Shown piece after piece: positions 1,180 to 42,830 of a stretch of DNA of 64,000 nt (position 1 is its first letter; the number at the start of each line of letters is the position of its first letter). The notes below the pieces were generated by a model. That model worked only from the letters and a program-made list of their open reading frames with translations, was not told where the DNA came from and did not search any database. This stretch comes from Escherichia phage AV109. The DNA lies in the sequence record OR352939.1; one strand, written 5' to 3'. The translations under genes and the position numbers were made by a program.

Positions 1180-1452
1180 TTAGTTGTTAGAATACATCGC
1201 TAAATGACGATAAATATTTTCAAAACCTTCATTGAATTCACTAATCAGTGTTTTCTTTTCTTCGGCAGTTAAATTTGTAATTAGTTTTCTGAACGAATTC
1301 TGATTTAACTGCCGACCATCTTTTTTAATTCCAATCTCATTCAAGAATCCGATGAAACTTGCTCGGTCTTCAACAATATCTTCCCTAGAGAATTTAATCA
1401 AAATAGAAGCAATAGTAATAATTTCACGTACGATTTCAATGTCTTTATTCAT
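1180..1452 (-). CDS. asiA: Anti-sigma70 factor AsiA
   Basis: 90 aa; matches T4 AsiA along its length (REIIT.ASILIKFSREDIVE, FLNEIG, LNQNSFRK, EFNEGFE). Confidence 0.9.
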   Translation of the reverse strand: MNKDIEIVREIITIASILIKFSREDIVEDRASFIGFLNEIGIKKDGRQLNQNSFRKLITNLTAEEKKTLISEFNEGFENIYRHLAMYSNN

Positions 1453-3313: not shown

Positions 3314-3946
3314 TCACAGTACGTTAGTTACAAGGGTAATGATTTCTTTGGACACATTAGGGAAGTCAATGTAAGTATATTTACCACCGATCTTAATCTT
3401 AACATCATTTTCAAGAGAAGTAAACAGCTTTGATTCAGTTTCTGACATGTTGTATGCAAAGATTCTAAGAGAACCATCTCGACGAATTTCGATCTGACGA
3501 ATACCTAGAACTCGTTTTGCAAATCGAACTTCCAAGTTACTACGGTTTTCACCGATTTCTTTAACTTCAACTTTATCTTTAATATTTTCAAAAACAAAGT
3601 TTGCTAGTTCATGCATTTCAGGAGTAACTCCACGTGCTTTTCTGGTGTTACGTTTCTGAAGAAGTTCTGGAGCATTTTCTTGAGCAAATAGGTCTGCAGC
3701 TTTTTGGATAATATCCATTGCTTCGCCTGTTGCTATAAGTCCATCACCAGATTTTTCGACTAAACCTTTCTTAATCAATACACCAATGTTAGAGTTAACA
3801 ACCGATGCATTGTATTCTGCCTCCAGAGCTTCACGGACATTGGCAGCAGTGGTGAAGTTGTTCTTAATGATATAAACCATTATTGCAGCAGTTTTTTCAT
3901 TCAGAGCGTTTTCAGAAGCTTTGATGATGTAAGTAACTTTAGACAT
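3314..3946 (-). CDS. motA: Middle transcription activator MotA
   Basis: 210 aa; N-terminus matches T4 MotA (MSKVTYIIKAS..LNEKTA, VVNSNIGVLIKKGLVEKSGDGLI, AQENAPELL.KR.TRKAR). Confidence 0.9.
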   Translation of the reverse strand: MSKVTYIIKASENALNEKTAAIMVYIIKNNFTTAANVREALEAEYNASVVNSNIGVLIKKGLVEKSGDGLIATGEAMDIIQKAADLFAQENAPELLQKRNTRKARGVTPEMHELANFVFENIKDKVEVKEIGENRSNLEVRFAKRVLGIRQIEIRRDGSLRIFAYNMSETESKLFTSLENDVKIKIGGKYTYIDFPNVSKEIITLVTNVL

Positions 3947-21879: not shown

Positions 21880-21953
21880 TCTTTTTTCATAAAATGCTTT
21901 AATTTTTTATGTGTTATAATGGTTCTGAGTTCCATCCGGTTATTCCAATTCAG

Positions 21954-25872: not shown

Positions 25873-26891
25873 ATCTTCGAATAACGAGATAATCTCATTT
25901 TAGCATGCAACCCACTTGAAATATTCTGTTTCATATATTCTAAAATTTCTTGTGGTGTTGCATTTTCTTTCATTACCATATCATTCACATCCTTTGAACT
26001 CCATGGAGCTCGGTCCCAGAACATGACACGTTCGCCTGCATCAACTAATCGCTTCATACGAGCTATAGTATCCGGATGCCTAGGTTCATTATCCATTACC
26101 CATACCCGGCGTTCTTTAAATGGTACCACATCTAAATCTATTGAGCCGCCTGTAATAGCGATTGCATTGGGTATGAATAAACTATCAATAGGACCTTCCA
26201 TTACCCAGACGTCCCCTTCCTTAACACGTTCAACACCATAAATTTTTGTTGCAGACTCAAACGCTTTAATAGTGATATATTTCTGAGGAGCATCTTTACG
26301 AAGTGCACGTCCTTGGAATGACTCGGCCTTCCCATCTTTATTAAAAATAGGAATCACTAAACGCGGTTCAGGAATCTCTTTCTTATACGTACCTGGTTGA
26401 ATCTTGTTGACCAATTTAGGCCATTCTAATGTGAACCATAATCTGTTCCATGATTCTTTAGGAATGCATCGAGACTTAACATATTTCACAATAGGATGCT
26501 CTTCAGGCAACTTGTCCAGACGAGAACAAGACGGCAAAGAATTTATAGTCTTTTTCTCTGGCTCCGGCTTAGCTTCAGGAACCTTTTCAATCTTTGGTTC
26601 CATTCTAGCTTTTTCTTTACGAACTTCCATTAGATATTCGCGATAAAGCTCTTCATCATACTCTTTTAAGTATCCGGAAATTGTATTGTGGTATTGACAG
26701 TTATAGCAATGTACATTACCAGGAGTACCGCCATAATACCAACCGCGAGCTTTCATTGCATCTGTCTGAGAGTCGCCACAAACTGGACATCGAAATGTTA
26801 ATTTAAATGTGCTTGAATTATTGATTTGTCTAAAACGAGGTAGGTGAGAAAACGCACGATAAGCAAATTCATTATCTATCCATTCAGCCAT
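25869..26891 (-). CDS. 61: DNA primase gp61
   Basis: 340 aa; N-terminal zinc ribbon (CPVCGDS...CYNCQYH) and TOPRIM region; size as T4 gp61. Confidence 0.88.
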   Translation of the reverse strand: MAEWIDNEFAYRAFSHLPRFRQINNSSTFKLTFRCPVCGDSQTDAMKARGWYYGGTPGNVHCYNCQYHNTISGYLKEYDEELYREYLMEVRKEKARMEPKIEKVPEAKPEPEKKTINSLPSCSRLDKLPEEHPIVKYVKSRCIPKESWNRLWFTLEWPKLVNKIQPGTYKKEIPEPRLVIPIFNKDGKAESFQGRALRKDAPQKYITIKAFESATKIYGVERVKEGDVWVMEGPIDSLFIPNAIAITGGSIDLDVVPFKERRVWVMDNEPRHPDTIARMKRLVDAGERVMFWDRAPWSSKDVNDMVMKENATPQEILEYMKQNISSGLHAKMRLSRYSKI

Positions 26892-28276: not shown

Positions 28277-28562
28277 CTGTGATTTCGGTTACGATATCTT
28301 TGTTATCGAAATTAGGGTCACAATACAAAACATAGTTGTACTGCATGATACCGCCAGACTTAAGTTGTTCAACAACTTTATTAACCATATTAGGACGGTC
28401 TCGTTTAGTGATGTTCATGATATCAGAGAAGATTTGTTGTTCAACATCTTCTTGATTTGCAGTCATTGACCACTCACAGAGGTCTTTATCATAACCTGCC
28501 GTAACTGGAGCCGGTGCACATGATACTGCAAGTAAGATTGCTGCCAATGATAACTTTTTCAT
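28269..28562 (-). CDS. sp: Secreted periplasmic protein, Spackle-like
   Basis: 97 aa with N-terminal signal peptide (MKKLSLAAILLAVSCAPA); size and 61-to-41 region position as T4 sp. Confidence 0.45.
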   Translation of the reverse strand: MKKLSLAAILLAVSCAPAPVTAGYDKDLCEWSMTANQEDVEQQIFSDIMNITKRDRPNMVNKVVEQLKSGGIMQYNYVLYCDPNFDNKDIVTEITGE

Positions 28563-29564: not shown

Positions 29565-29878
29565 ATTTCCTCGCAAAATGCCCATTCAGCGTGATAAACT
29601 GTAGCGCCTTTAGTATCATTCATTTGAACTACATCTACCGGAGAAATTACTCGATAGAGACGTGGTTCACCTCCATAAGAGCGTGCTGCTCGTCCTGCAT
29701 AAATCTTTGCTAAACCGATATCTTCAGTAAAGAATACACGATCCAAGTTTTTCTTACGTCCAGTTTCAGACAGAACTCCTGTTTCTTCAGGAGGACAAAG
29801 CATGTTTTCGATGTTAGCTGAACTACTTGAACCGTGATAAAAAATCTTAAATTCTGCTTTACAATCGATGGTTTTCAT
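29561..29878 (-). CDS. Hypothetical protein with YHGS motif (possible ADP-ribosyltransferase/Tpt1-like fold)
   Basis: 105 aa; KIFYHGSSS followed by RVFFTEDIGLAKIYAGR; start preceded by GGAG RBS and an early promoter. Confidence 0.3.
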   Translation of the reverse strand: MKTIDCKAEFKIFYHGSSSSANIENMLCPPEETGVLSETGRKKNLDRVFFTEDIGLAKIYAGRAARSYGGEPRLYRVISPVDVVQMNDTKGATVYHAEWAFCEEI

Positions 29879-34003: not shown

Positions 34004-34903
34004 TTATTCCTCGATTACGACATCTTCATATTTAGGTATATTATATGGTGAAGAAATTAAAGCATTAAAGTAGATGAACTCACCAAGACCTGGATGAAAT
34101 ACTTCTTCAGGATTTTCGAAATATTGAATCTTCGGACGTCCTTTAAGAATTTGATAGTACTCAGTTTTAGTTGGTTTAAAAATTCGAATCAACGCTTCTT
34201 CAGGATACTTATTTCTGTCAAAGCTATTATTTGGATCGGTTATATAAAGCGGTTGACCTAATTGAATTGCGCATTCAACAACTTGTTCAAAACGATAGCA
34301 TGGGTCACTAATTCGAAATGGATGAAAAATACCATCTAGATGAATAGGAGCCAAATCACCTACAAGACGCTGCATGATGGAAGGACGTATAACTTTCTGC
34401 GTTACGATAATCTTATTACCATCTGCACCTGCGTTAACCAGCACTTCTTTTTGACGTTCATTCAACACAGTTGTTTGGATTGAACGATTAACCGACAATA
34501 TGTCGGTTTTTAAGAATTCGTCAATATAAAAACGTGGTTTATTAGGGTCTGCGGTGATATTGAAATTGAATTCTACATCAAAAGCGCCGTCATATCCAGT
34601 GATATCTGTGATTAGAAAATCACAATCATAATAAGCAATTAATGAATCAACCACAAATTCATTTTCAGACCAGAAATATTTACGAGTGTTATACGCGTTA
34701 TCTTTATACCATAATGGAACAAACTTAAATTCTGGAAAAAGACGTTCGCATTCTTTAATATCAGATGCATTACGTGGATATGTAATCACATCACCCGGAT
34801 TAGCACGGTGCAAATGAAGTTGGAAGTTGCCATCCTTAAGGATAGCATACTGTCCAGTTTCATAAGACCGCATACTCAAGATAGGTACGCGGAAAATAGC
34901 CAT
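34004..34903 (-). CDS. Hypothetical protein in the bgt slot (candidate transferase)
   Basis: 299-aa ORF tightly packed between the P-loop kinase and the gene 42 homologue; no motif recognised. Confidence 0.45.
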   Translation of the reverse strand: MAIFRVPILSMRSYETGQYAILKDGNFQLHLHRANPGDVITYPRNASDIKECERLFPEFKFVPLWYKDNAYNTRKYFWSENEFVVDSLIAYYDCDFLITDITGYDGAFDVEFNFNITADPNKPRFYIDEFLKTDILSVNRSIQTTVLNERQKEVLVNAGADGNKIIVTQKVIRPSIMQRLVGDLAPIHLDGIFHPFRISDPCYRFEQVVECAIQLGQPLYITDPNNSFDRNKYPEEALIRIFKPTKTEYYQILKGRPKIQYFENPEEVFHPGLGEFIYFNALISSPYNIPKYEDVVIEE

Positions 34904-35619
34904 TAGTCAAGGAATCCTTTAACATAATCAAAATCACGTTCAAACACATGGGCACTTACCATGGTATGAGTATAATCACCAACTTCTACACCACATTCGT
35001 TAGCGATATAATGAAGTAATTTTCCTTGGAGATAAAAATCCAACTGCATAACAACAGCACAGTTCTGGGAACGCATATGACAGTGGGTATAAAGCTTACC
35101 GTCACGAATATAATAGGTCACTGAGTCAGTACATGGATATTCAAGCGTTTCGTCTGAATCAAGCAAAGCCTGATCAGAACTTTCTAGAATTTGGAACACA
35201 ACTCTTCGGGAGTTAGGCTTCTCTTTAAGTTCTTTTAGAAGAGCTGGTAATTGAGCCGCAATGCGAGGACCATAGAAAGTGTTGAAGTTCGCCGGCAAAA
35301 CATCTGATTTTGGTTTAGAAATAAATTTAGCGACATTAGGATATGCCTTAAACGCTTCTTCTGCGTTGGTACCACCAGAAATCATAAACTTCCAGAAGTC
35401 TTCGGCATATTCATAAGAGATGCGGTTAATACGTGGGTCGGTCATTTTGAATGATGATGGAGTGTCAACAACTACTGTCATAGACCCAATTTCATTACAA
35501 CGTCCAATACGAGAATCAGTTACGAATTCCGGGTTTTCTAAAATTTCACGATTGACTGCTTTAAATGCGGCTTGAAAATCTGCGGCTTTGATATATTTCA
35601 TTGTGTTATGTTTTCCCAT
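34903..35619 (-). CDS. 42: dCMP hydroxymethylase-like (thymidylate synthase family)
   Basis: 238 aa; TS-family active-site region (YPCTDSVTYYIRDGKLY, HMRSQN); position before gene 43 as T4 gene 42. Confidence 0.65.
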   Translation of the reverse strand: MGKHNTMKYIKAADFQAAFKAVNREILENPEFVTDSRIGRCNEIGSMTVVVDTPSSFKMTDPRINRISYEYAEDFWKFMISGGTNAEEAFKAYPNVAKFISKPKSDVLPANFNTFYGPRIAAQLPALLKELKEKPNSRRVVFQILESSDQALLDSDETLEYPCTDSVTYYIRDGKLYTHCHMRSQNCAVVMQLDFYLQGKLLHYIANECGVEVGDYTHTMVSAHVFERDFDYVKGFLD

Positions 35620-35661: not shown

Positions 35662-35901
35662 TTATTTGAATTTCTTGGCAATGTTGATATAACGTAAAGC
35701 TTCAGTATCAATACTTCCAAGAACACTATGAAGAAATGCATCAGCGTAGTATTCCAATTGAACAGGTTCTTTAATCACTTTAGCCGCTTTGGTTTCAAAC
35801 AGGCCCATCAGGGCCTTTTTAAGAATTTGTTCGTTAGTGTTCAGTTTAATAGTCAAAATCTCTTCGTTAAGTTTATAATTAAAAGTTTTTCTAGAAATCA
35901 T
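35662..35901 (-). CDS. Hypothetical protein
   Basis: 79-aa ORF. Confidence 0.4.
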   Translation of the reverse strand: MISRKTFNYKLNEEILTIKLNTNEQILKKALMGLFETKAAKVIKEPVQLEYYADAFLHSVLGSIDTEALRYINIAKKFK

Positions 35902-37067
35902 TCCGGGTACCTCAAAGCGTCATCAGAGTTAGTTATATCAATAATAGATATAGAGTTTTCTGCTAACCCGTTTTTAGATAATTGACGTTTATAATATCTT
36001 TCACAATATGTACACGTCGTCCCGCAGATTTCATTAGCACAATCGAAATCTGGATGTCTGAACCACCTTTTTTCTAAAAAGCCATCTAACAAAGAGGTTT
36101 CAATATTTACTGTATGTGAAAACTCAGTTTCGTTTTCAAGAGTGAAAATGGTCTCTAAAGGCTTCCACAGTTCTAACAAATTACCTTCAAACTTTTCAGA
36201 AGCGTATGCTTCAAGAACTTTCAAAATGTAGTCTGTGCTACCTGTACGTCCTGAAACTTTGAATTGAGTGATACCAATATCATTATAAAGTTTCAAATCT
36301 TGAGGACGAACAAAACGAGTTCTCAACCAGTTAAATGGGTCTGTATCACGAGCTTTAATACAGTGCTGCATAGGATATCCGTTTAAGGATTTAGCATCAT
36401 CAGCTGTAACATCAGTACTATGGAAAATATAGCAAGAGTCACGATAGCTACAATGTGTTGTATACCCTTTACCAGCATTAGAACAGAACTCATTTACAAG
36501 AACTTCAAATATTATATTGTTCTTATTGCAAAACTCTGCTGCACGCTTCAGGAAAGAAACTGAACGGTTCTTATGAATTCCGCAGCAGACCTTTTTGATA
36601 TTATACTGGTCATGCAAGTATTTGATTTGAGTTACAGCATCGACATGTAGAATTGTTGAAACTTCAATCTCAATGTCTTTATTGACTTCACGAACAATTT
36701 CCATAACAACAGGGTTAGCGATAGTAATACGCCATACGCCTATTGACCAAAGATACTGAACATAATCCTGAATAGCTTTCTTCTTCCACTCAACTAGTTC
36801 TCTTTTTGAACCAGGATTTATCGTGTTGAGTGTATAGTTAAAGCAAATACCTAATTCGTTACAACGTTTAACGTAGTCTTCTAACATCTTTTTGTCAACG
36901 TCAGGAAGCCTAAAATCAGGTCTGGCTGCTACAAAAGCCATTTCTCTTGTAGAGCCATATACTTCGTTTATCAAGCTATTAGGATAGGTTTTATTGAGCT
37001 CTACGATTTTATCAAGAAGAGCTAAATCAAAATTCGTTCCGATTTTAAAAGTATTCATTTTTTGCAT
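35898..37067 (-). CDS. U32-peptidase-family-like protein with Cys clusters (putative Fe-S enzyme)
   Basis: 389 aa; blocks resembling the U32 family (ICFNYTLNTINP, EVLVNEFCSNAGKGYTTHCSY, FKVSGRTGS) plus C-terminal CANEICGTTCTYC; assignment from motif recall only. Confidence 0.35.
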   Translation of the reverse strand: MQKMNTFKIGTNFDLALLDKIVELNKTYPNSLINEVYGSTREMAFVAARPDFRLPDVDKKMLEDYVKRCNELGICFNYTLNTINPGSKRELVEWKKKAIQDYVQYLWSIGVWRITIANPVVMEIVREVNKDIEIEVSTILHVDAVTQIKYLHDQYNIKKVCCGIHKNRSVSFLKRAAEFCNKNNIIFEVLVNEFCSNAGKGYTTHCSYRDSCYIFHSTDVTADDAKSLNGYPMQHCIKARDTDPFNWLRTRFVRPQDLKLYNDIGITQFKVSGRTGSTDYILKVLEAYASEKFEGNLLELWKPLETIFTLENETEFSHTVNIETSLLDGFLEKRWFRHPDFDCANEICGTTCTYCERYYKRQLSKNGLAENSISIIDITNSDDALRYPE

Positions 37068-37113: not shown

Positions 37114-37515
37114 TTATAGATTCGGTTTATACGATTTAAATGTTTCGAATTCGCCTTTATTCATAAGAGCTTTGAATTCGTCAGGACGCATAGCTTTGTC
37201 GTCGATAATCCAATCATATACTGGTTTATGTGTTAGCAAATTATGGTACTTCAAGCCAATGTTTGCCAAGTTCTGAATCAGACTTGGGAGAATGTCAATT
37301 GCTATACGACCAGGACCTACTGACTTCATACCGCGAGCAGTGTAAAGCGTTATGGTATGCCCTGCATCATACAGGGCATTAATGGCAGACACCATTTCGA
37401 CGTCTGGTTTGAAGTTCACGTAATCACGATTGTTATTCCACTCTGTTATACAATCATCGACATCAAAACAAAGATTAAGCATGTTTTCTACACGGTGCAT
37501 TAGATTCGTTCCCAT
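37114..37515 (-). CDS. HAD-superfamily phosphatase (KdsC-like small sugar-phosphate phosphatase)
   Basis: 133 aa; DxD motif I (CFDVDDCIT) near N-terminus. Confidence 0.5.
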   Translation of the reverse strand: MGTNLMHRVENMLNLCFDVDDCITEWNNNRDYVNFKPDVEMVSAINALYDAGHTITLYTARGMKSVGPGRIAIDILPSLIQNLANIGLKYHNLLTHKPVYDWIIDDKAMRPDEFKALMNKGEFETFKSYKPNL

Positions 37516-39185
37516 TGATGAGTGATATCGCCACCGATTGGACGATAGGAAACACCAGTTTCTTTATCAGTTAGTACCCATTTACCAGGATTTTTTGTAA
37601 TCAGAGTAGCCGTTACAGGTTCTGCTACGTCATAACTAATAGAGCCGTCCTGAAGTACACGGCCCATGTTACGTAATTGCTTAGTCAGAAGTTCCATACC
37701 TTTATAATATGCGGCTACCGCTTTAAGTGGATTATTCTTGAAATAACCACCTAATGCAATCCAGATAATTGCCACAGCCAAATGATGATATTCATTAAAC
37801 GAACTCAGCTTTCCATATTTGTAAACTAATGGATTGATGTTAATAGTCACATTACAAGTTGTTTCATCAATAGTAAACTGTCCCCAGGTCGGATTAGCAT
37901 TGAATTCATCATAACCTGAAACAGCATAAAGCACTTTAGCTTCATCATACAATTTTGGCCCGTAAATCTTGGTTTCACCAAAATATCCACGAGGGTCGAT
38001 AAATTTGACTTCGCCGTTATCAGTAATCATAGTATTACTGAAGTTCGGGTCACCATGAATAACAGAGTACTGTCCCTGAGAACGGTTATGATAACGAATA
38101 AGGTGTTCTAAAGCTTGTTTCAGCATTGGCTTCAGACGTCCAATCTTAGTGTAGTTCACATGTGTGATTTTACCAAATGAATCAATCAACGGTTGAATGC
38201 TTTCACAACGATCAATAACTTTCGTATAGAATTCTTTAGTGAAATCACGACGAACAGTTTCAGGACTTACAAAATAAGTGTCTGTGCTGAATTTCAGTGC
38301 ATCTAAAATTGCATCAACAATTTGTGGACGAGCAAGACTTGATTTGGATTTAATATATTCAAATGCCGGCTTACCTTTAATGCGTTCCATTTCAAAGTTA
38401 TTTTCATTAACAGAAACTAACTGAGGAACTGAATCTGATTTCACTTTAAGATACCATGAAATCTCATCTTTCTGAAGAGCTCGACCTTGTTCAGTTAATG
38501 CGAATTTAGTTACAGTTTCTTCACCAATTTCAACTGCATTAAAACTACGATTAAGTTCACGAACTTCATGAGCCTTTTCAAGTTTAGGCATATCACCAAG
38601 GTCGATGATATTCATAAGCTCTGATTTATTGAATGCGCCGCTGTAAAGGAATTCTACGAAATCACGTCCTTTGCAGTATTCATGAATTTCCTCATCGGTA
38701 GAACCCATGTAGAATTCCCAGTCTTTGAACTGGTAAATTCCCACAACATTACCACCTGTTGAACCTACGTTAGTGATATTTTCACCATCGAAATTATATC
38801 GACATTCGTCACCCTTAACATAGATTGCGTTAACATTCCAAGACCATGAACCAAAATCAGGAATAATATCACACCAGTTAACAATTACGTTATGGCCGTC
38901 TAAATCTTTGTGTAATTTAGCAAGAGCATAAGCAGAACCATACGCTTCATCGACTGTACGAATAGTCACATTGAACCCTTCTTGCTCACAATAAGCTCGA
39001 ACAGTTTCAGCAAATTTTGAATGAACTACTACAATAATTTCATCTGCGCCAAGGTCAGAATAAATTGTATACAAATTGCTCAGAATAGTGTCTTGTTTAT
39101 AGTTAACAAGCACCTTAGGAATATGGTGAGTAATTGGATATAAACGAGTTGCCAATCCAGCACCAAGAATAACAGCTTTTTTCAT
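37500..39185 (-). CDS. Bifunctional sugar-1-phosphate nucleotidyltransferase / sugar kinase (APH/choline-kinase-like C-terminal domain)
   Basis: 561 aa; N-terminal NTP-transferase signature (KAVILGAGLATRLYPITHHIPKVLV); C-terminal phosphotransferase motifs (HGDPNFSNTMI, KFIDPRGYFG). Confidence 0.6.
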   Translation of the reverse strand: MKKAVILGAGLATRLYPITHHIPKVLVNYKQDTILSNLYTIYSDLGADEIIVVVHSKFAETVRAYCEQEGFNVTIRTVDEAYGSAYALAKLHKDLDGHNVIVNWCDIIPDFGSWSWNVNAIYVKGDECRYNFDGENITNVGSTGGNVVGIYQFKDWEFYMGSTDEEIHEYCKGRDFVEFLYSGAFNKSELMNIIDLGDMPKLEKAHEVRELNRSFNAVEIGEETVTKFALTEQGRALQKDEISWYLKVKSDSVPQLVSVNENNFEMERIKGKPAFEYIKSKSSLARPQIVDAILDALKFSTDTYFVSPETVRRDFTKEFYTKVIDRCESIQPLIDSFGKITHVNYTKIGRLKPMLKQALEHLIRYHNRSQGQYSVIHGDPNFSNTMITDNGEVKFIDPRGYFGETKIYGPKLYDEAKVLYAVSGYDEFNANPTWGQFTIDETTCNVTININPLVYKYGKLSSFNEYHHLAVAIIWIALGGYFKNNPLKAVAAYYKGMELLTKQLRNMGRVLQDGSISYDVAEPVTATLITKNPGKWVLTDKETGVSYRPIGGDITHQWERI

Positions 39186-39212
39186 GTTGTGGTCCTCATT
39201 GGTAAGTAGGAG

Positions 39213-39240
39213 TATTGTACACTATTCTAGTTAAAGCATT
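39213..39240 (-). promoter_or_regulatory. Candidate MotA-dependent middle promoter (MotA box AATGCTTTA + TACAAT -10) upstream of the nucleotidyltransferase-kinase gene
   Basis: Minus strand reads AATGCTTTAA-N12/13-TACAAT, then GAGG RBS and ATG at 39185. Confidence 0.4.
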
Positions 39241-39370
39241 CATACTTTGCTTGTAGTCCAATCATAATCCATCCAATTACAAGTGTTGGAATCATTACCG
39301 GAGCCGTTAAGCTCCAGTAGATAGTCATGACAAGCATCAATAGTAAAAGTCCTATTGTTATTGCTTTCAT
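39227..39370 (-). CDS. Small membrane protein (about 47 aa)
   Basis: ATG 39370 overlapping stop of SIS gene (ATGA), GAGG RBS; translation MKAITIGLLLLMLVMTIYWSLTAPVMIPTLVIGWIMIGLQAKYECFN; T4 has membrane protein Imm in this interval. Confidence 0.3.
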   Translation of the reverse strand: MKAITIGLLLLMLVMTIYWSLTAPVMIPTLVIGWIMIGLQAKYECFN

Positions 39371-40002
39371 TGTTCGCCTCGTAACATGGCACCTAGTGCA
39401 CCGCCTGGATGGAACTTAAGGAAATCATTAGAGGTAAATCCACGTTCAGACGAAAGGTTGATAGCAAACGTATCGATAAGCGCTAACAACAATGTAGTGG
39501 ACATTGTCGGAGCTAAAGAGTTCTCGTCAACTTCTACCGCGATACCAGTACAGAACGTATAATCAAAAAGAGCTTCGTATTCTTGTGGAATGTCAGGGTT
39601 ACAATGTAACAGAATCTGTTTAACCTGAGGACGAATCATACGAAGATGTTTAGCAACACCTATCATTTCTTCAGTCTTACCAGAACGACTAATATGAATC
39701 AACACGTCATTAGGTGCAATAAATCCTGCGTCACCATGAGAATAATGCCCAGTGTTCAAATACATGCTAGGAATACCTAGTGAAGCAAATGTCTCGGAAG
39801 CTTTAGTTGCGATATTAGCATTCTTACCAACACCTGTAATAATTACCCGGCTTTCATAATTACTAAGTCCAGGGCGTCGAAGAGTTTCTAGAATAGCATT
39901 ATAACGAGCAGGGTTTTGACTAATTACTTTGGCCATAGCGGCCAAAGAAGAAGCTTGTTTTATGATTGCGTCAATAGCGATAGTAATAGGAGTAGTTTTC
40001 AT
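39367..40002 (-). CDS. SIS-domain sugar-phosphate isomerase, KpsF/GutQ-type (arabinose-5-phosphate isomerase-like), no CBS domains
   Basis: 211 aa; ITGVGKNANIATKASETFASLGIPSMYL, HGDAGFIAPNDVLIHISRSGKTEEM, LAPTMSTTLLLALID, FHPGGALG match the KpsF/GutQ SIS-domain pattern. Confidence 0.6.
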   Translation of the reverse strand: MKTTPITIAIDAIIKQASSLAAMAKVISQNPARYNAILETLRRPGLSNYESRVIITGVGKNANIATKASETFASLGIPSMYLNTGHYSHGDAGFIAPNDVLIHISRSGKTEEMIGVAKHLRMIRPQVKQILLHCNPDIPQEYEALFDYTFCTGIAVEVDENSLAPTMSTTLLLALIDTFAINLSSERGFTSNDFLKFHPGGALGAMLRGEQ

Positions 40003-40042: not shown

Positions 40043-42754
40043 TCAAAAATCGAACATATCGAACAGAGATGCTTTCTTCTCGTAATCGAGTTTCGCTGCT
40101 GATGTGAATCCTTCAAGTGGTTTAATAAATGTCTTCTCAAGGAGAACAGTGTAGTCCATCCAATGAAGTACGTCGTCTTTAATTAAATCTGTGATTTCAG
40201 TACCAGAAGGCCATGCGATACATTTATCACCGAATGGGTTTCCTTCACGTAAAGGCAGAACATATACTTTTTCACCTTCTACAACTTGTGGTGCATCAAT
40301 ATTACCTTTGATAGCTCGGTTATATGTCAGAATTCCACGAATATGAAACGGGCATTTAGGACCAGGGAATCCACCGACATCATATTTAGCAATGTTATTC
40401 GCAGAAGATACCGACGCGATGCTAATATAATTCAATTGACGGAATTCTTTTTCAAACTCTTTAAAATATTCTTGTAATGATTCTTCACCTTCTTGAAGCA
40501 TACGACGAATACATTCTTTAAGAGCTTTCTGTACTGCTTTAGGAGTCGAAGATTTCTGAGTCTCTAGACCCATGATTTTGAGTTTAGGCTCAGCATAACG
40601 AGTGCCTTCCATATCCCACACGTTTAATGCATAACGTTTCTTACCAGTCCAGAATCCACCAATACCTTTAGAACCGAGCGGAGGGCCAGCAATAGCTTCT
40701 CGGTCCATGAACATTAAGTGTTGTTTATTGTTCATGTATTCACACATTTCACGGAAACCTCTATCAATAGCTGGTTCCATACGTTCACGTGCAAACTTAT
40801 CTAAGAAGTCTACCCAATGGTTTGTATCACGGAATTTAGATTCACCAACCTTATCGATAATTTTATCAGCAGATACGTAAATAGAGTCTGTATCACCATA
40901 AAGAACGAAAGCTTCACCTTCTGTACCACAAACTTCATTCAGATATTCATTAACTTTACGTTCAATCCACTGTAAAGCCATTTGACCAAATGTTGTGATT
41001 GCAGTTGCATTACGCAAATCATAATAACGGAACCAAACGTTTCCAAGTGCACCATAAAGTGAGTTGATAAGCAATTTACGGTTAATTTGGGCAGTCATAC
41101 CCGCAACTTCAGTACGTTGAGCTCTAAACAACATTTCATTAAGAGATTTAGCAGACAACTTTTTAATCTTTTCTTTAATCTCATCGCTGAAGTCGAAACG
41201 ATAATCAACATCTAATGGTTCGTCAACAGAAAGATTAGGATTATGCAATGCCTCTTTAATTATTTCACCATTACGTTGAGCTGCAAGCATGTAACCTTTA
41301 TGTTCTTTACGTTGATTAAAGACCTTAGTGATTTCAGTTGGAACTACACCATCACGGTCTTTATAATACATCATGCCGTTAGGAGAACAACTGTACACAT
41401 CTGAAGGACGTTCAGCGATTGCGTTAATATAATCATGTAATGGAGCTACTTTAAACGTTCCTGCTATTGTTTCTGGGCTAATATTCACTTGGCGAATGAT
41501 GCTTGGATACAGAGATGTAAGGTCGAAACTCATTACATATTTGTATCGATTTGGAATAGGTTCCTTAACAAAAGCGCCAGGATAAGGTTGAACCGGGTGA
41601 GAACGACCTTGTGGAATCACCTTGTTCTGCTCTTTAAGGCTATTAAAAATAATAGCATCCCAAGTTTTAATTGGACTGAACACAGATTGAATCTGAATTT
41701 TAGCATAATAACCCATGTCCAAGCTCAAGTTGATGAACTGACGCTTAGAATCAATTTGCAATACACGATACACGTCGATAATGTTATAAGAAATATATCG
41801 TTGGTGATTGCTTTCACGAAGCTTAGAAATAGGGCCGTCATATTTCAGTTTACCAACGTTCAATTCAAATTCTGAAATGTAATCCAGAGAATACGACGGT
41901 TGATTGGTAAAAGAGAATTTTTTGTAAAGGTCAATGTAATCAAGAACAGAGATACCGAACAATGTAATGATTTCACGAGAACCATACATGTTTTCGATAA
42001 CTTTAACACGAGTTTTACGATGTGGCGATAAACGTTTCGCAGTAGATTCGCCAAAAATATTCTTGATTCGGTTATACACATATGGAATATCAAATGACTC
42101 AACGTTCCATCCAGTCAAAATGACAGGAGTTTTCTGTTGCCAGAAGTTGAGATATTCCATCAACAATTCTTTTTCGTTATCGAACGGCATATAAATGATT
42201 TTATCGATAATTTCAGATGGAACTTCATCACCGCCTTGTTCTTGAAGCTTAGCAGCGATTTCAATAGACCATTCTTCTACATTACCATACGGAGAATTCA
42301 ATAGATCAAATACGTAGAACCTGTCGTCAATTGAGTCATAATGGGTGATAGCATCAATAGGATGCTTTGCTTGTGCCGGCTCAGGGAACCCGTCCGGAGA
42401 TGTTACTTCGATGTCGAAGTTAGCCACACGAATTTTTGTATGGTCGTATTTGATTTCATAGTTATAAGTGTCAGACAAATACGCCAATTTGAAATCGTCC
42501 ATGCCAAGTGCTTCAAGTCCGATATCTTCCATGCGTTTAATCCATTGGGAGGCATCACGCATATTAGCGAACAACTTACGAGTACACGGCTTACCGTAGA
42601 TATCGAAATATTTCGTAGCCTGACTTTCCGGACAATGAGCAAACAGTGATGGTTTATATTCTACTTCACGAGTACGTTCACGGCCATTAGAATCGATGTA
42701 ACGTTCAAAAATTGAATCACCAATCTGTTCAACCGTTAAGTAAAATTCTTTCAT
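40043..42754 (-). CDS. 43: DNA polymerase gp43 (family B)
   Basis: 903 aa; exonuclease and polymerase motifs including YGDTDS; size as T4 gp43. Confidence 0.95.
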   Translation of the reverse strand: MKEFYLTVEQIGDSIFERYIDSNGRERTREVEYKPSLFAHCPESQATKYFDIYGKPCTRKLFANMRDASQWIKRMEDIGLEALGMDDFKLAYLSDTYNYEIKYDHTKIRVANFDIEVTSPDGFPEPAQAKHPIDAITHYDSIDDRFYVFDLLNSPYGNVEEWSIEIAAKLQEQGGDEVPSEIIDKIIYMPFDNEKELLMEYLNFWQQKTPVILTGWNVESFDIPYVYNRIKNIFGESTAKRLSPHRKTRVKVIENMYGSREIITLFGISVLDYIDLYKKFSFTNQPSYSLDYISEFELNVGKLKYDGPISKLRESNHQRYISYNIIDVYRVLQIDSKRQFINLSLDMGYYAKIQIQSVFSPIKTWDAIIFNSLKEQNKVIPQGRSHPVQPYPGAFVKEPIPNRYKYVMSFDLTSLYPSIIRQVNISPETIAGTFKVAPLHDYINAIAERPSDVYSCSPNGMMYYKDRDGVVPTEITKVFNQRKEHKGYMLAAQRNGEIIKEALHNPNLSVDEPLDVDYRFDFSDEIKEKIKKLSAKSLNEMLFRAQRTEVAGMTAQINRKLLINSLYGALGNVWFRYYDLRNATAITTFGQMALQWIERKVNEYLNEVCGTEGEAFVLYGDTDSIYVSADKIIDKVGESKFRDTNHWVDFLDKFARERMEPAIDRGFREMCEYMNNKQHLMFMDREAIAGPPLGSKGIGGFWTGKKRYALNVWDMEGTRYAEPKLKIMGLETQKSSTPKAVQKALKECIRRMLQEGEESLQEYFKEFEKEFRQLNYISIASVSSANNIAKYDVGGFPGPKCPFHIRGILTYNRAIKGNIDAPQVVEGEKVYVLPLREGNPFGDKCIAWPSGTEITDLIKDDVLHWMDYTVLLEKTFIKPLEGFTSAAKLDYEKKASLFDMFDF

Positions 42755-42814
42755 TTAATTTCCTTTAGACGAGTTATTGTCTTTTGTTTGTTGATGAACT
42801 TATTATACTCCAAA

Positions 42815-42830
42815 TGGGACCGAAGTCCCA
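42815..42830 (-). other. UUCG-tetraloop hairpin (UGGGAC-UUCG-GUCCCA) between regA and gene 43
   Basis: Inverted repeat directly after regA stop; followed by TATAAT-like -10 (GAGTATAATAAG on minus strand). Confidence 0.4.

Follow-up and report, generated by a model that had tools for sequence, protein, structure and literature searches.

A predicted T4-type middle promoter ahead of the UDP-arabinose enzyme gene in Escherichia phage AV109

Introduction

Sigma appropriation, the mode of action of the MotA/AsiA-dependent middle promoters, is established for phage T4 (PMC2988021; PMC6755090). T4 middle promoters follow the consensus 5'(a/t)(a/t)(a/t)TGCTTtA-12±1-TAtaaT, and T4 prereplicative genes are expressed through such promoters and through read-through alike (PMC2988021). 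One of these promoters, P42, has a mapped start at position 26320 of T4 (Hinton 2010, Table 1).

For phage RB69, Nolan et al. (2006; Virol J 3:30, PMC1524935, Additional file 4) predicted 32 middle sites by model search, among them Pm:29842 (29802-29842, minus strand, score 17.7). Nothing is entered from 20971 to 42465 in the early-promoter table of the same study and, therefore, the replication and arabinose block is predicted to rely on middle promoters or long read-through. In 2006, a sequencing error had divided the gene downstream of Pm:29842, whose function was not then known, so that the link to UDP-arabinose was not made. Later, Thomas et al. (2018; PMC6024577) showed ORF053c and ORF052c to form a single gene, and in a model of 2026 its product gp52:53 is a bifunctional arabinose-5-P kinase/UDP-arabinose pyrophosphorylase in the pathway arabinosylating modified cytosine, with gp51 as a HAD-type phosphatase of the same pathway (PMC13326640). 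Phage promoters are absent from both of these RB69 arabinosylation papers (PMC6024577, PMC13326640), and a search of the literature for transcript mapping or RNA-seq of RB69 or Mosigvirus phages gave nothing relevant.

Here, we describe the orthologous site of Escherichia phage AV109, which lies on the minus strand of a 64,000-nt stretch of DNA (OR352939.1) referred to as the window throughout. The AV109 site is already known as a prediction, made in 2006 for the orthologous position in RB69. The sole addition of the first-pass annotation of the AV109 sequence was to tie a previously predicted promoter to the now-known function of the gene downstream of it.

Promoter matrix and comparative scans

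The scoring matrix was derived from the 58 mapped T4 middle-promoter start sites in Table 1 of Hinton (2010), 56 of which were extracted from the T4 genome and 54 aligned on -10 element and MotA box. From 53 of these promoters a two-block matrix was built, allowing a spacer of 11-13 nt. For comparison with relatives, the orthologous region was taken from eleven further phages, and the 200 nt before the ATG of the nucleotidyltransferase-kinase gene were scanned with the same matrix.

Anatomy of the site

Across the whole site, the minus strand reads gtatGAATGCTTTAactagaatagtgTACAATactcctActtaccaatGAGGaccacaacATG. Its MotA box, GAATGCTTTA (39241-39232, minus strand, read directly from the strand), contains an exact TGCTTTA core (39238-39232), the sole departure from W being the G that opens the flank. 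Counted from the end of TGCTTTA, a spacer of 12 nt follows (39231-39220, minus strand; aactagaatagtg minus the final box A, i.e., actagaatagtg), which leads to a sigma70-type -10 hexamer, TACAAT (39219-39214, minus strand). This hexamer agrees with TATAAT in five of six positions and is also found in the mapped T4 promoters PnrdG and P30.2. TGn is missing from -15/-14 of the AV109 site, where GTG precedes the -10 element. As for a sigma70 -35 element, the best match to TTGACA at 16-18 nt spacing reaches three of six positions, and the site does not appear in the list of the sigma70 scan.

Because the -10 element ends 7 nt before the mapped start in 45 of 54 T4 middle promoters, transcription is predicted to start at A39207 (minus strand), 7 nt past the hexamer. 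With this +1, TACAAT would occupy -12 to -7 and the GCTT of the box -30 to -27, which matches the placement of GCTT in T4 and RB69 middle promoters (PMC1524935; PMC2988021). The predicted start is located 22 nt upstream of the ATG (39185-39183) of a 561-aa gene, within a 41-nt intergenic gap, and would yield a short 5' leader (39186-39206, minus strand) with the Shine-Dalgarno motif GAGG (39197-39194) 8 nt ahead of the ATG. On its other side, the site reaches into a 47-aa ORF, the box overlapping the final codons GAA TGC TTT AAC TAG and the TAG (39229-39227) sitting in the spacer.

The first-pass annotation had placed a MotA-like box, TACAAT, GAGG and the ATG of a nucleotidyltransferase-kinase gene on the minus strand, and all of them are present by direct reading. 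Its spacing of 12-13 nt is correct for the canonical TGCTTTA box (12 nt), but one nucleotide too many for the 10-mer actually quoted, AATGCTTTAA (39240-39231, minus strand), between which and TACAAT there are 11 nt (ctagaatagtg, 39230-39220). Likewise, the T4 middle-promoter architecture that it had proposed is borne out by box consensus, 12-nt spacing, position of GCTT, a sigma70 -10 element and the lack of a usable -35.

Other element types were considered for the same bases and rejected. A T4-family early promoter would have a -35 match of at most three of six positions and no TGn here, is not in the sigma70 scan, and none is predicted in RB69 20971-42465. For a T4 late promoter (gp55/gp33/gp45), TATAAATA is expected at -13 to -6 and does not occur on the minus strand of 39186-39260. 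An intrinsic terminator or structured RNA was dismissed as well, since no terminator-like site is found at 39186-39260; the RNA 39260-39170 folds with -7.6 kcal/mol (z = +1.54), and 197 of 200 shuffles fold equally well or better.

Score and enrichment in the window

With the T4-derived matrix, the AV109 site scores 16.6 bits. For comparison, the leave-one-out scores of the T4 promoters have a median of 14.8 (quartiles 11.8 and 17.7), and T4 P42 reaches 16.9 bits. Sites of at least 16 bits occur 17 times on the minus strand of the window and once on the plus strand, while 200 dinucleotide shuffles give 0.32 and 0.25, respectively. The loose pattern TGCTTNA-N11-13-TANNNT is likewise overrepresented, with 18 occurrences in the window (14 of them on the minus strand) versus 3.94 ± 2.12 in shuffles (maximum 10). 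The majority of strong minus-strand matches fall 10-100 nt ahead of gene starts. Several matches in the window are near-identical to the mapped T4 promoters P46i(2), P55.8(2) and P55.8, and the region upstream of gene 43 repeats the unusual hairpin and ggagTATAAT layout of T4 P43. From this enrichment and these T4-like matches, it follows that the phage most likely possesses a T4-like middle regulon, of which the AV109 site is, as judged by its score, an average-to-good member. In RB69, the T4 matrix recovered all four sites that Nolan et al. had listed between 24 and 36 kb, namely 24034, 24665, 26264 and 29842, with 19.2, 11.3, 15.8 and 16.6 bits, respectively; the AV109 counterpart of the 24665 site scores 12.3 bits.

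MotA and AsiA

Genes for both T4-type factors are present in the window. The motA gene (3314-3946, minus strand) encodes an activator of middle transcription of 210 aa (PF09114, 1.1e-39; PF09158, 2.1e-08), and asiA (1180-1452, minus strand) an anti-sigma70 co-activator of 90 aa (PF09010, 2.4e-32). AV109 MotA aligns over its full length with the T4 MotA of the cryo-EM sigma-appropriation complex (6k4y chain M, 5.9e-52), although identity to the T4 protein differs strongly between the activation domain (72%), the minor-groove linker (56%) and the DNA-binding domain (30%). A T4-like specificity of AV109 MotA is assumed here from the enrichment of the T4 box, and the T4-like middle consensus that Nolan et al. 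derived for RB69 (PMC1524935) is consistent with it.

Surrounding genes and predicted transcription unit

Over the 4 kb surrounding the site, AV109 shows 100% identity with Escherichia phages AV114 and AV115 and 97-99% with many genomes of the RB69-like genus Mosigvirus. Along the minus strand, the gene order is regA, gene 43, isomerase, 47-aa ORF, 561-aa gene, gp51-like gene, U32-like gene, small ORF, thymidylate-synthase-like gene, two more genes and uvsX. Upstream of the promoter are found gene 43, encoding DNA polymerase (40043-42754, minus strand), an arabinose-5-phosphate isomerase gene (39367-40002, minus strand; assigned by Pfam SIS, 4.8e-10, and annotation) and the 47-aa hydrophobic ORF (39227-39370, minus strand), an orthologue of RB69 ORF054c whose 3' end holds the MotA box.

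The first gene of the predicted unit is that of the 561-aa nucleotidyltransferase-kinase (37500-39185, minus strand; Pfam NTP_transferase, 8.4e-10), the orthologue of RB69 gp52:53. It is overlapped by the RB69 gp51 orthologue (37114-37515, minus strand), which is likely co-transcribed with it, and the peptidase U32-like orthologue of RB69 gp50 (35898-37067, minus strand; Pfam Peptidase_U32, 7.4e-11) likely shares the same transcription unit. A small ORF orthologous to RB69 ORF049c (35662-35901, minus strand) is the last gene ahead of the next middle-type match, ATAAGCTTTA-11-TATAAT (35665-35639, minus strand, 15.8 bits), which corresponds to RB69 Pm:26264. The thymidylate-synthase-like gene (RB69 gp48; 34903-35619, minus strand) lies 13 nt downstream of this match. 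Another middle-type site is located farther downstream (34067-34040), and one of 18.3 bits precedes the dCTPase gene (25646-25619).

In the first-pass annotation, the promoter was described as driving the sugar-nucleotide genes. This would apply to the 561-aa gene, which it precedes, but neither to the isomerase gene nor to the next genes with their own sites at 35665-35639 and 34067-34040. The isomerase gene is located upstream of the promoter and thus would not be driven from 39207; the P43-like promoter is the likelier source of its transcripts. Neither a terminator nor a stable RNA structure was found in the interval from gene 43 through the isomerase gene and the small ORF to the 561-aa gene. 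Hence, read-through from the gene-43 promoter region likely also contributes to expression of the 561-aa gene.

Conservation among relatives

In RB69, the sequence GAATGCTTTA-actagaatagtg-TACAAT is found at 29837-29810 (box 29837-29828, -10 element 29815-29810). Pm:29842 and the AV109 site are therefore alike in having identical box, spacer and -10 element and in being flanked by equivalent genes, which in RB69 are ORF054c upstream and ORF053c downstream. The two phages are separate isolates with 96.6% identity over the 321 nt around the site, and both assignments rest on computational prediction.

Within the genus Mosigvirus, the promoter of SA79RD, like that of RB69, is identical to that of AV109. 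Beyond this genus, the Kanagawavirus phages Q7622, PEi20 and IME523 and the Tegunavirus fHe-Yen9-01 carry AATTGCTTCA-12-TACAAT (19.9 bits), while the Winklervirus CHI14 displays CAGTGCTTTA-12-TACAAT (17.5 bits). TGCTT(T/C)A-12-TACAAT is thus kept across four genera (Mosigvirus, Kanagawavirus, Winklervirus and Tegunavirus) with scores of 16.6-19.9 bits, and in each conserved case 25-29 nt separate the end of the -10 element from the ATG. Alignment of eight arabinose-cluster Tevenvirinae sequences revealed TGC TTy AAy Trr, GTACAAT and the ribosome site AAyGAGGA as invariant blocks, whereas the spacer and the bases past the -10 element diverge between genera. MotA homologues are present in lineages keeping the site, e.g., in PEi26 (69%) and CHI14 (58.5%). 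In the Dhakavirus Bp7, the sequence ahead of the gene is of another kind, and the 200-nt scan gave no comparable site. Bp7 was set aside as support, and so were the Acinetobacter phages Acj61 and DLP3, their tACTTTAA, 14 nt and TATAAT-like arrangement being outside the 11-13 nt model.

Conservation of the box is partly confounded by coding constraint, as it encodes the Cys-Phe-Asn-stop of the small ORF. The Cys codon in the box, however, is always TGC, though codon usage in the window is 171 TGT versus 74 TGC. This uniformity lends weak support, the sequences being phylogenetically non-independent. Since the -10 element is non-coding and Cys is uniformly encoded by TGC, coding constraint is probably not the whole explanation.

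Weighing of alternative explanations

Considered together, these data point with good probability to a T4-type MotA/AsiA middle promoter working by sigma appropriation. Several observations count against this reading. The -10 element is TACAAT instead of TATAAT, with no TGn in Mosigvirus, and an excellent -10 element is described as a requirement of T4 middle promoters (PMC2988021). In addition, the DNA-binding domain of MotA shows no more than 30% identity to its T4 counterpart, and without an upstream terminator, read-through alone could express the 561-aa gene. The last point leads to the reading that the sequence match does not act as a promoter, in which case the box is kept as Cys-Phe-Asn-stop coding sequence and all expression of the 561-aa gene comes from read-through that begins at the gene 43 promoter region or at more distant promoters. 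The overlap of the box with codons would fit this reading, as would the lack of a terminator or stable structure detected from gene 43 to the 561-aa gene and the known use of read-through beside middle promoters by T4 prereplicative genes. Nevertheless, we regard it as unlikely, given that the non-coding TACAAT is invariant in four genera while its neighbours vary and that about 0.3 chance sites per strand are expected at this score versus 17 observed. Moreover, Tequatroviruses with the promoter elsewhere in the ORF encode Cys-Ile-Asn at its end and have no box, and the segment of about 41 nt with the -10 element is confined to box-bearing phages.

A MotA-independent sigma70 promoter of the early class, weak and '-10 only' or of the extended -10 type, could also be read from these bases by unmodified host RNA polymerase right after infection. 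TACAAT, after all, agrees with the sigma70 -10 element in five of six positions, TGG stands directly upstream of it in the Kanagawavirus, Tegunavirus and Winklervirus relatives, resembling an extended -10 TGn, and for some T4 middle promoters, e.g., PuvsX, RNA polymerase alone suffices in vitro (PMC6755090). Yet, such a promoter would have to do with the poor -35 match described above, without TGn at -15/-14 and without a hit in the sigma70 scan, while T4-family early promoters are of the strong UP/-35/TGn/-10 type (PMC2988021) and Nolan et al. (2006) predicted no early promoter in RB69 20971-42465. It would also leave the GCTT core at -30 to -27 and the 12-nt spacing unexplained and, hence, appears very unlikely. 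An even lower probability is assigned to GTACAAT and its flank being an element at the RNA or DNA level, either a hairpin on read-through transcripts (for processing or translational control) or a protein-binding palindrome. This idea draws on the inverted repeat GGTACA-ATGGA-TGTACC, which spans the -10 element and the predicted start in the Kanagawavirus, Tegunavirus and Winklervirus relatives. The repeat is missing, however, in Mosigvirus including AV109, where TACAAT and box nonetheless persist, and the AV109 RNA 39260-39170 folds no better than shuffles, so that we consider it extremely improbable.

Proposed mechanism

As a T4-type middle promoter, the site would function as follows. Early in infection, the phage would produce AsiA (1180-1452) and MotA (3314-3946). 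AsiA would remodel region 4 of the host sigma70, with the consequence that the -35 element is no longer read, and MotA would dock on the remodelled sigma through its N-terminal domain and contact the box GAATGCTTTA through its linker and its C-terminal domain. Sigma70 region 2 would read TACAAT (39219-39214), and transcription would start near A39207. The predicted mRNA, with a 22-nt leader and the GAGG ribosome-binding site, would encode the 561-aa protein (37500-39185) and probably the products of the three genes that follow, as far as about 35662. From there, another middle-type promoter (35665-35639) would take over ahead of the gene of the gp48-like modified-dCMP synthase. In this way, the promoter at 39207 would add a MotA-dependent prereplicative boost to probable read-through transcripts from the gene 43 region. 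Its timing would be prereplicative (middle), making the sugar donor ready as replication begins.

Timing with DNA replication had also been suggested by the first-pass annotation. The assignment to the middle class is supported in silico, but middle transcription is prereplicative and not strictly replication-timed. The in silico support for MotA/AsiA control derives from motA and asiA in the window, the enriched and strand-biased motif, the conservation in four genera, the independent prediction of RB69 Pm:29842 and the prereplicative-type gene just downstream.

A feedback between DNA modification and transcription is conceivable in addition. The cytosines of the box (the one in TGCTT and, on the other strand, the one paired with its G) would carry the arabinosylation whose donor is made by the promoter's own gene, and MotA may read arabinosylated boxes; we hold this to be highly improbable. 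If it were true, promoter activity would vary between incoming modified, newly replicated and under-modified DNA. In AV109 MotA, the DNA-binding domain (30%) has diverged from that of T4 far more than the activation domain (72%), and it might read arabinosylated boxes, not glucosylated ones.

Implications

If the promoter is confirmed, the UDP-arabinose enzyme will join the MotA/AsiA prereplicative regulon along with dCTPase, modified-dCMP synthase and replisome genes. This would be expected and not surprising, because T4 does likewise with genes 42, 56, alpha-gt and beta-gt; as members of this well-understood class go, the site is ordinary, its apparent relocation relative to T4 P42 and the speculative feedback being the only less usual aspects. 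In practice, it is of modest use, offering a defined promoter and a predicted 5' end for engineering or expressing the arabinosylation cassette.

Comparison with T4 promoters

The obvious T4 counterpart is P42. In the imm-42 intergenic region of T4, an unannotated 49-aa ORF is homologous to the 47-aa ORF of AV109, and in the RB69 record ORF054c is noted as resembling the T4 42-imm intercistronic region. Like the AV109 site, P42 is located downstream of gene 43, falls in or at the small hydrophobic ORF, which is homologous in the two phages, and precedes DNA-modification genes, in T4 gene 42 and beta-gt. Both promoters have the make-up of the MotA/AsiA type with 12-nt spacing, scoring 16.9 bits (P42) and 16.6 bits (AV109).

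They differ, however, in their exact placement. P42 is situated within the 5' portion of the small ORF, whereas the AV109 promoter is formed by the last codons of the ORF plus an added intergenic segment of about 41 nt. Accordingly, the ORF ends with GAA TGT ATC AAT TGA and no box in T4, but with GAA TGC TTT AAC TAG in AV109. Three other Tequatroviruses keep the P42 arrangement, with 19.4-19.5 bits at 108 nt before gene 42, and end their small ORF with GAA TG(T/C) ATC AAT TGA, i.e., again without a box. At the P42 position of arabinose-cluster phages, in turn, no match was obtained, the next-best upstream score being at most 9.3 bits in eight phages and 8.0 bits in AV109. The extra segment of about 41 nt with the -10 element occurs, according to the alignment, only in phages having the box. 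Nucleotide homology of the AV109 box to T4 P42 was rejected, given that in T4 and the three Tequatroviruses P42 occupies the 5' portion of the ORF, the 3' end of which is box-free. Thus, the AV109 promoter is best described as a presumptive positional and functional analogue of T4 P42, about 90 bp farther downstream, and not as its nucleotide homologue.

Also the downstream cargo differs, which is the arabinose cassette in AV109 and directly gene 42 in T4. Apparently, the small ORF and the gene-42 homologue were separated by insertion of the cassette, the ancestral promoter of P42 type disappeared from the 5' portion of the ORF and a new box arose in its last codons, which would amount to promoter turnover. 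The site would offer a clear-cut case of a middle promoter displaced by about 90 bp from the place of T4 P42 with map position and role retained. The same logic is seen in T4 P-alpha-gt, PsegA/P42 (upstream of beta-gt) and P56 (dCTPase), with enzymes for hypermodified cytosine placed in the MotA-dependent prereplicative regulon. T4, however, uses UDP-glucose of the host and needs no genes for sugar-nucleotide synthesis, whereas the AV109 promoter precedes the gene of an enzyme that makes the sugar donor itself.

MotA and the motif in the window

The MotA protein of the window (motA, 3314-3946) has diverged from its T4 counterpart in a mosaic fashion: identity falls from 72% in the activation domain through 56% in the linker to 30% in the DNA-binding domain. 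Despite this low identity of the DNA-binding domain, the motif enriched in the genome of the window phage is the T4-type box. Using the T4-derived matrix, the top middle-promoter match of the whole window (22.9 bits) is found on the plus strand at 21892-21920 (AAATGCTTTA-13-TATAAT). It occupies the intergenic space that separates the srd-like gene from the modA-like gene; the latter is encoded on the minus strand, and the match points into its 3' end in antisense orientation. A published list of predicted middle promoters (Nolan 2006) includes RB69 Pm:12081, also on the plus strand, which probably represents the same site.

Another strong match is located on the minus strand at 37908-37936 (AAGTGCTTTA-13-TATGAT, 18.4 bits), inside the nucleotidyltransferase-kinase gene and with the next gene 386 nt downstream. 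Its RB69 equivalent (28502-28530) is identical in box and -10 and differs by one base in the spacer, while the middle promoters predicted for RB69 in 2006 include no site at this position.

The predicted promoter region in related phages

In relatives belonging to Kanagawavirus, Tegunavirus and Winklervirus (L007, L008, L009, L010, L011), an inverted repeat, GGTACA-ATGGA-TGTACC, overlaps the -10 and the predicted start; in L007, L008, L010 and L011, it lies approximately 28-45 nt 5' of the nucleotidyltransferase-kinase ATG. Mosigvirus lacks this inverted repeat. At approximately 35-70 nt 5' of the orthologous gene, the Acinetobacter phages Acj61 (L013) and DLP3 (L014) carry tGTACTTTAA, followed after about 14 nt, instead of the 12-nt spacer of the T4 geometry, by a TATAAT-like hexamer. 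Their MotA homologue is only partial (residues 57-210, 30% identical), and the arrangement may constitute a variant of both box and spacing. For the distant Straboviridae member Thanatos-2 (L016), a Shewanella phage, the T4-derived matrix gives a match of 18.9 bits (TTTTGCTTAT-12-TATAAT) 27-55 nt upstream of the NTP-transferase gene, directly 3' of a terminator-like hairpin and T run.

Comparison with mapped T4 promoters

The T4 (L004) imm-42 region, regarded as intergenic, contains an unannotated minus-strand ORF (26226-26375) for a hydrophobic protein of 49 amino acids, MKSKIIAALLLILMIIISIYYSVTVPLMIPTIILGWSLLLLQVKYECIN, and the mapped start of the T4 middle promoter P42 is internal to it. 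Homologues are the 47-aa ORF of the window (39227-39370) and RB69 ORF054c, and this small hydrophobic ORF is kept across Tevenvirinae genera. Upstream of gene 43, the minus strand of the window reads a hairpin, gggacttcggtccc, and then atttggagTATAAT (42802-42829), which is the same unusual layout as in the mapped T4 promoter P43, where a terminator-like hairpin takes the place of the MotA box.
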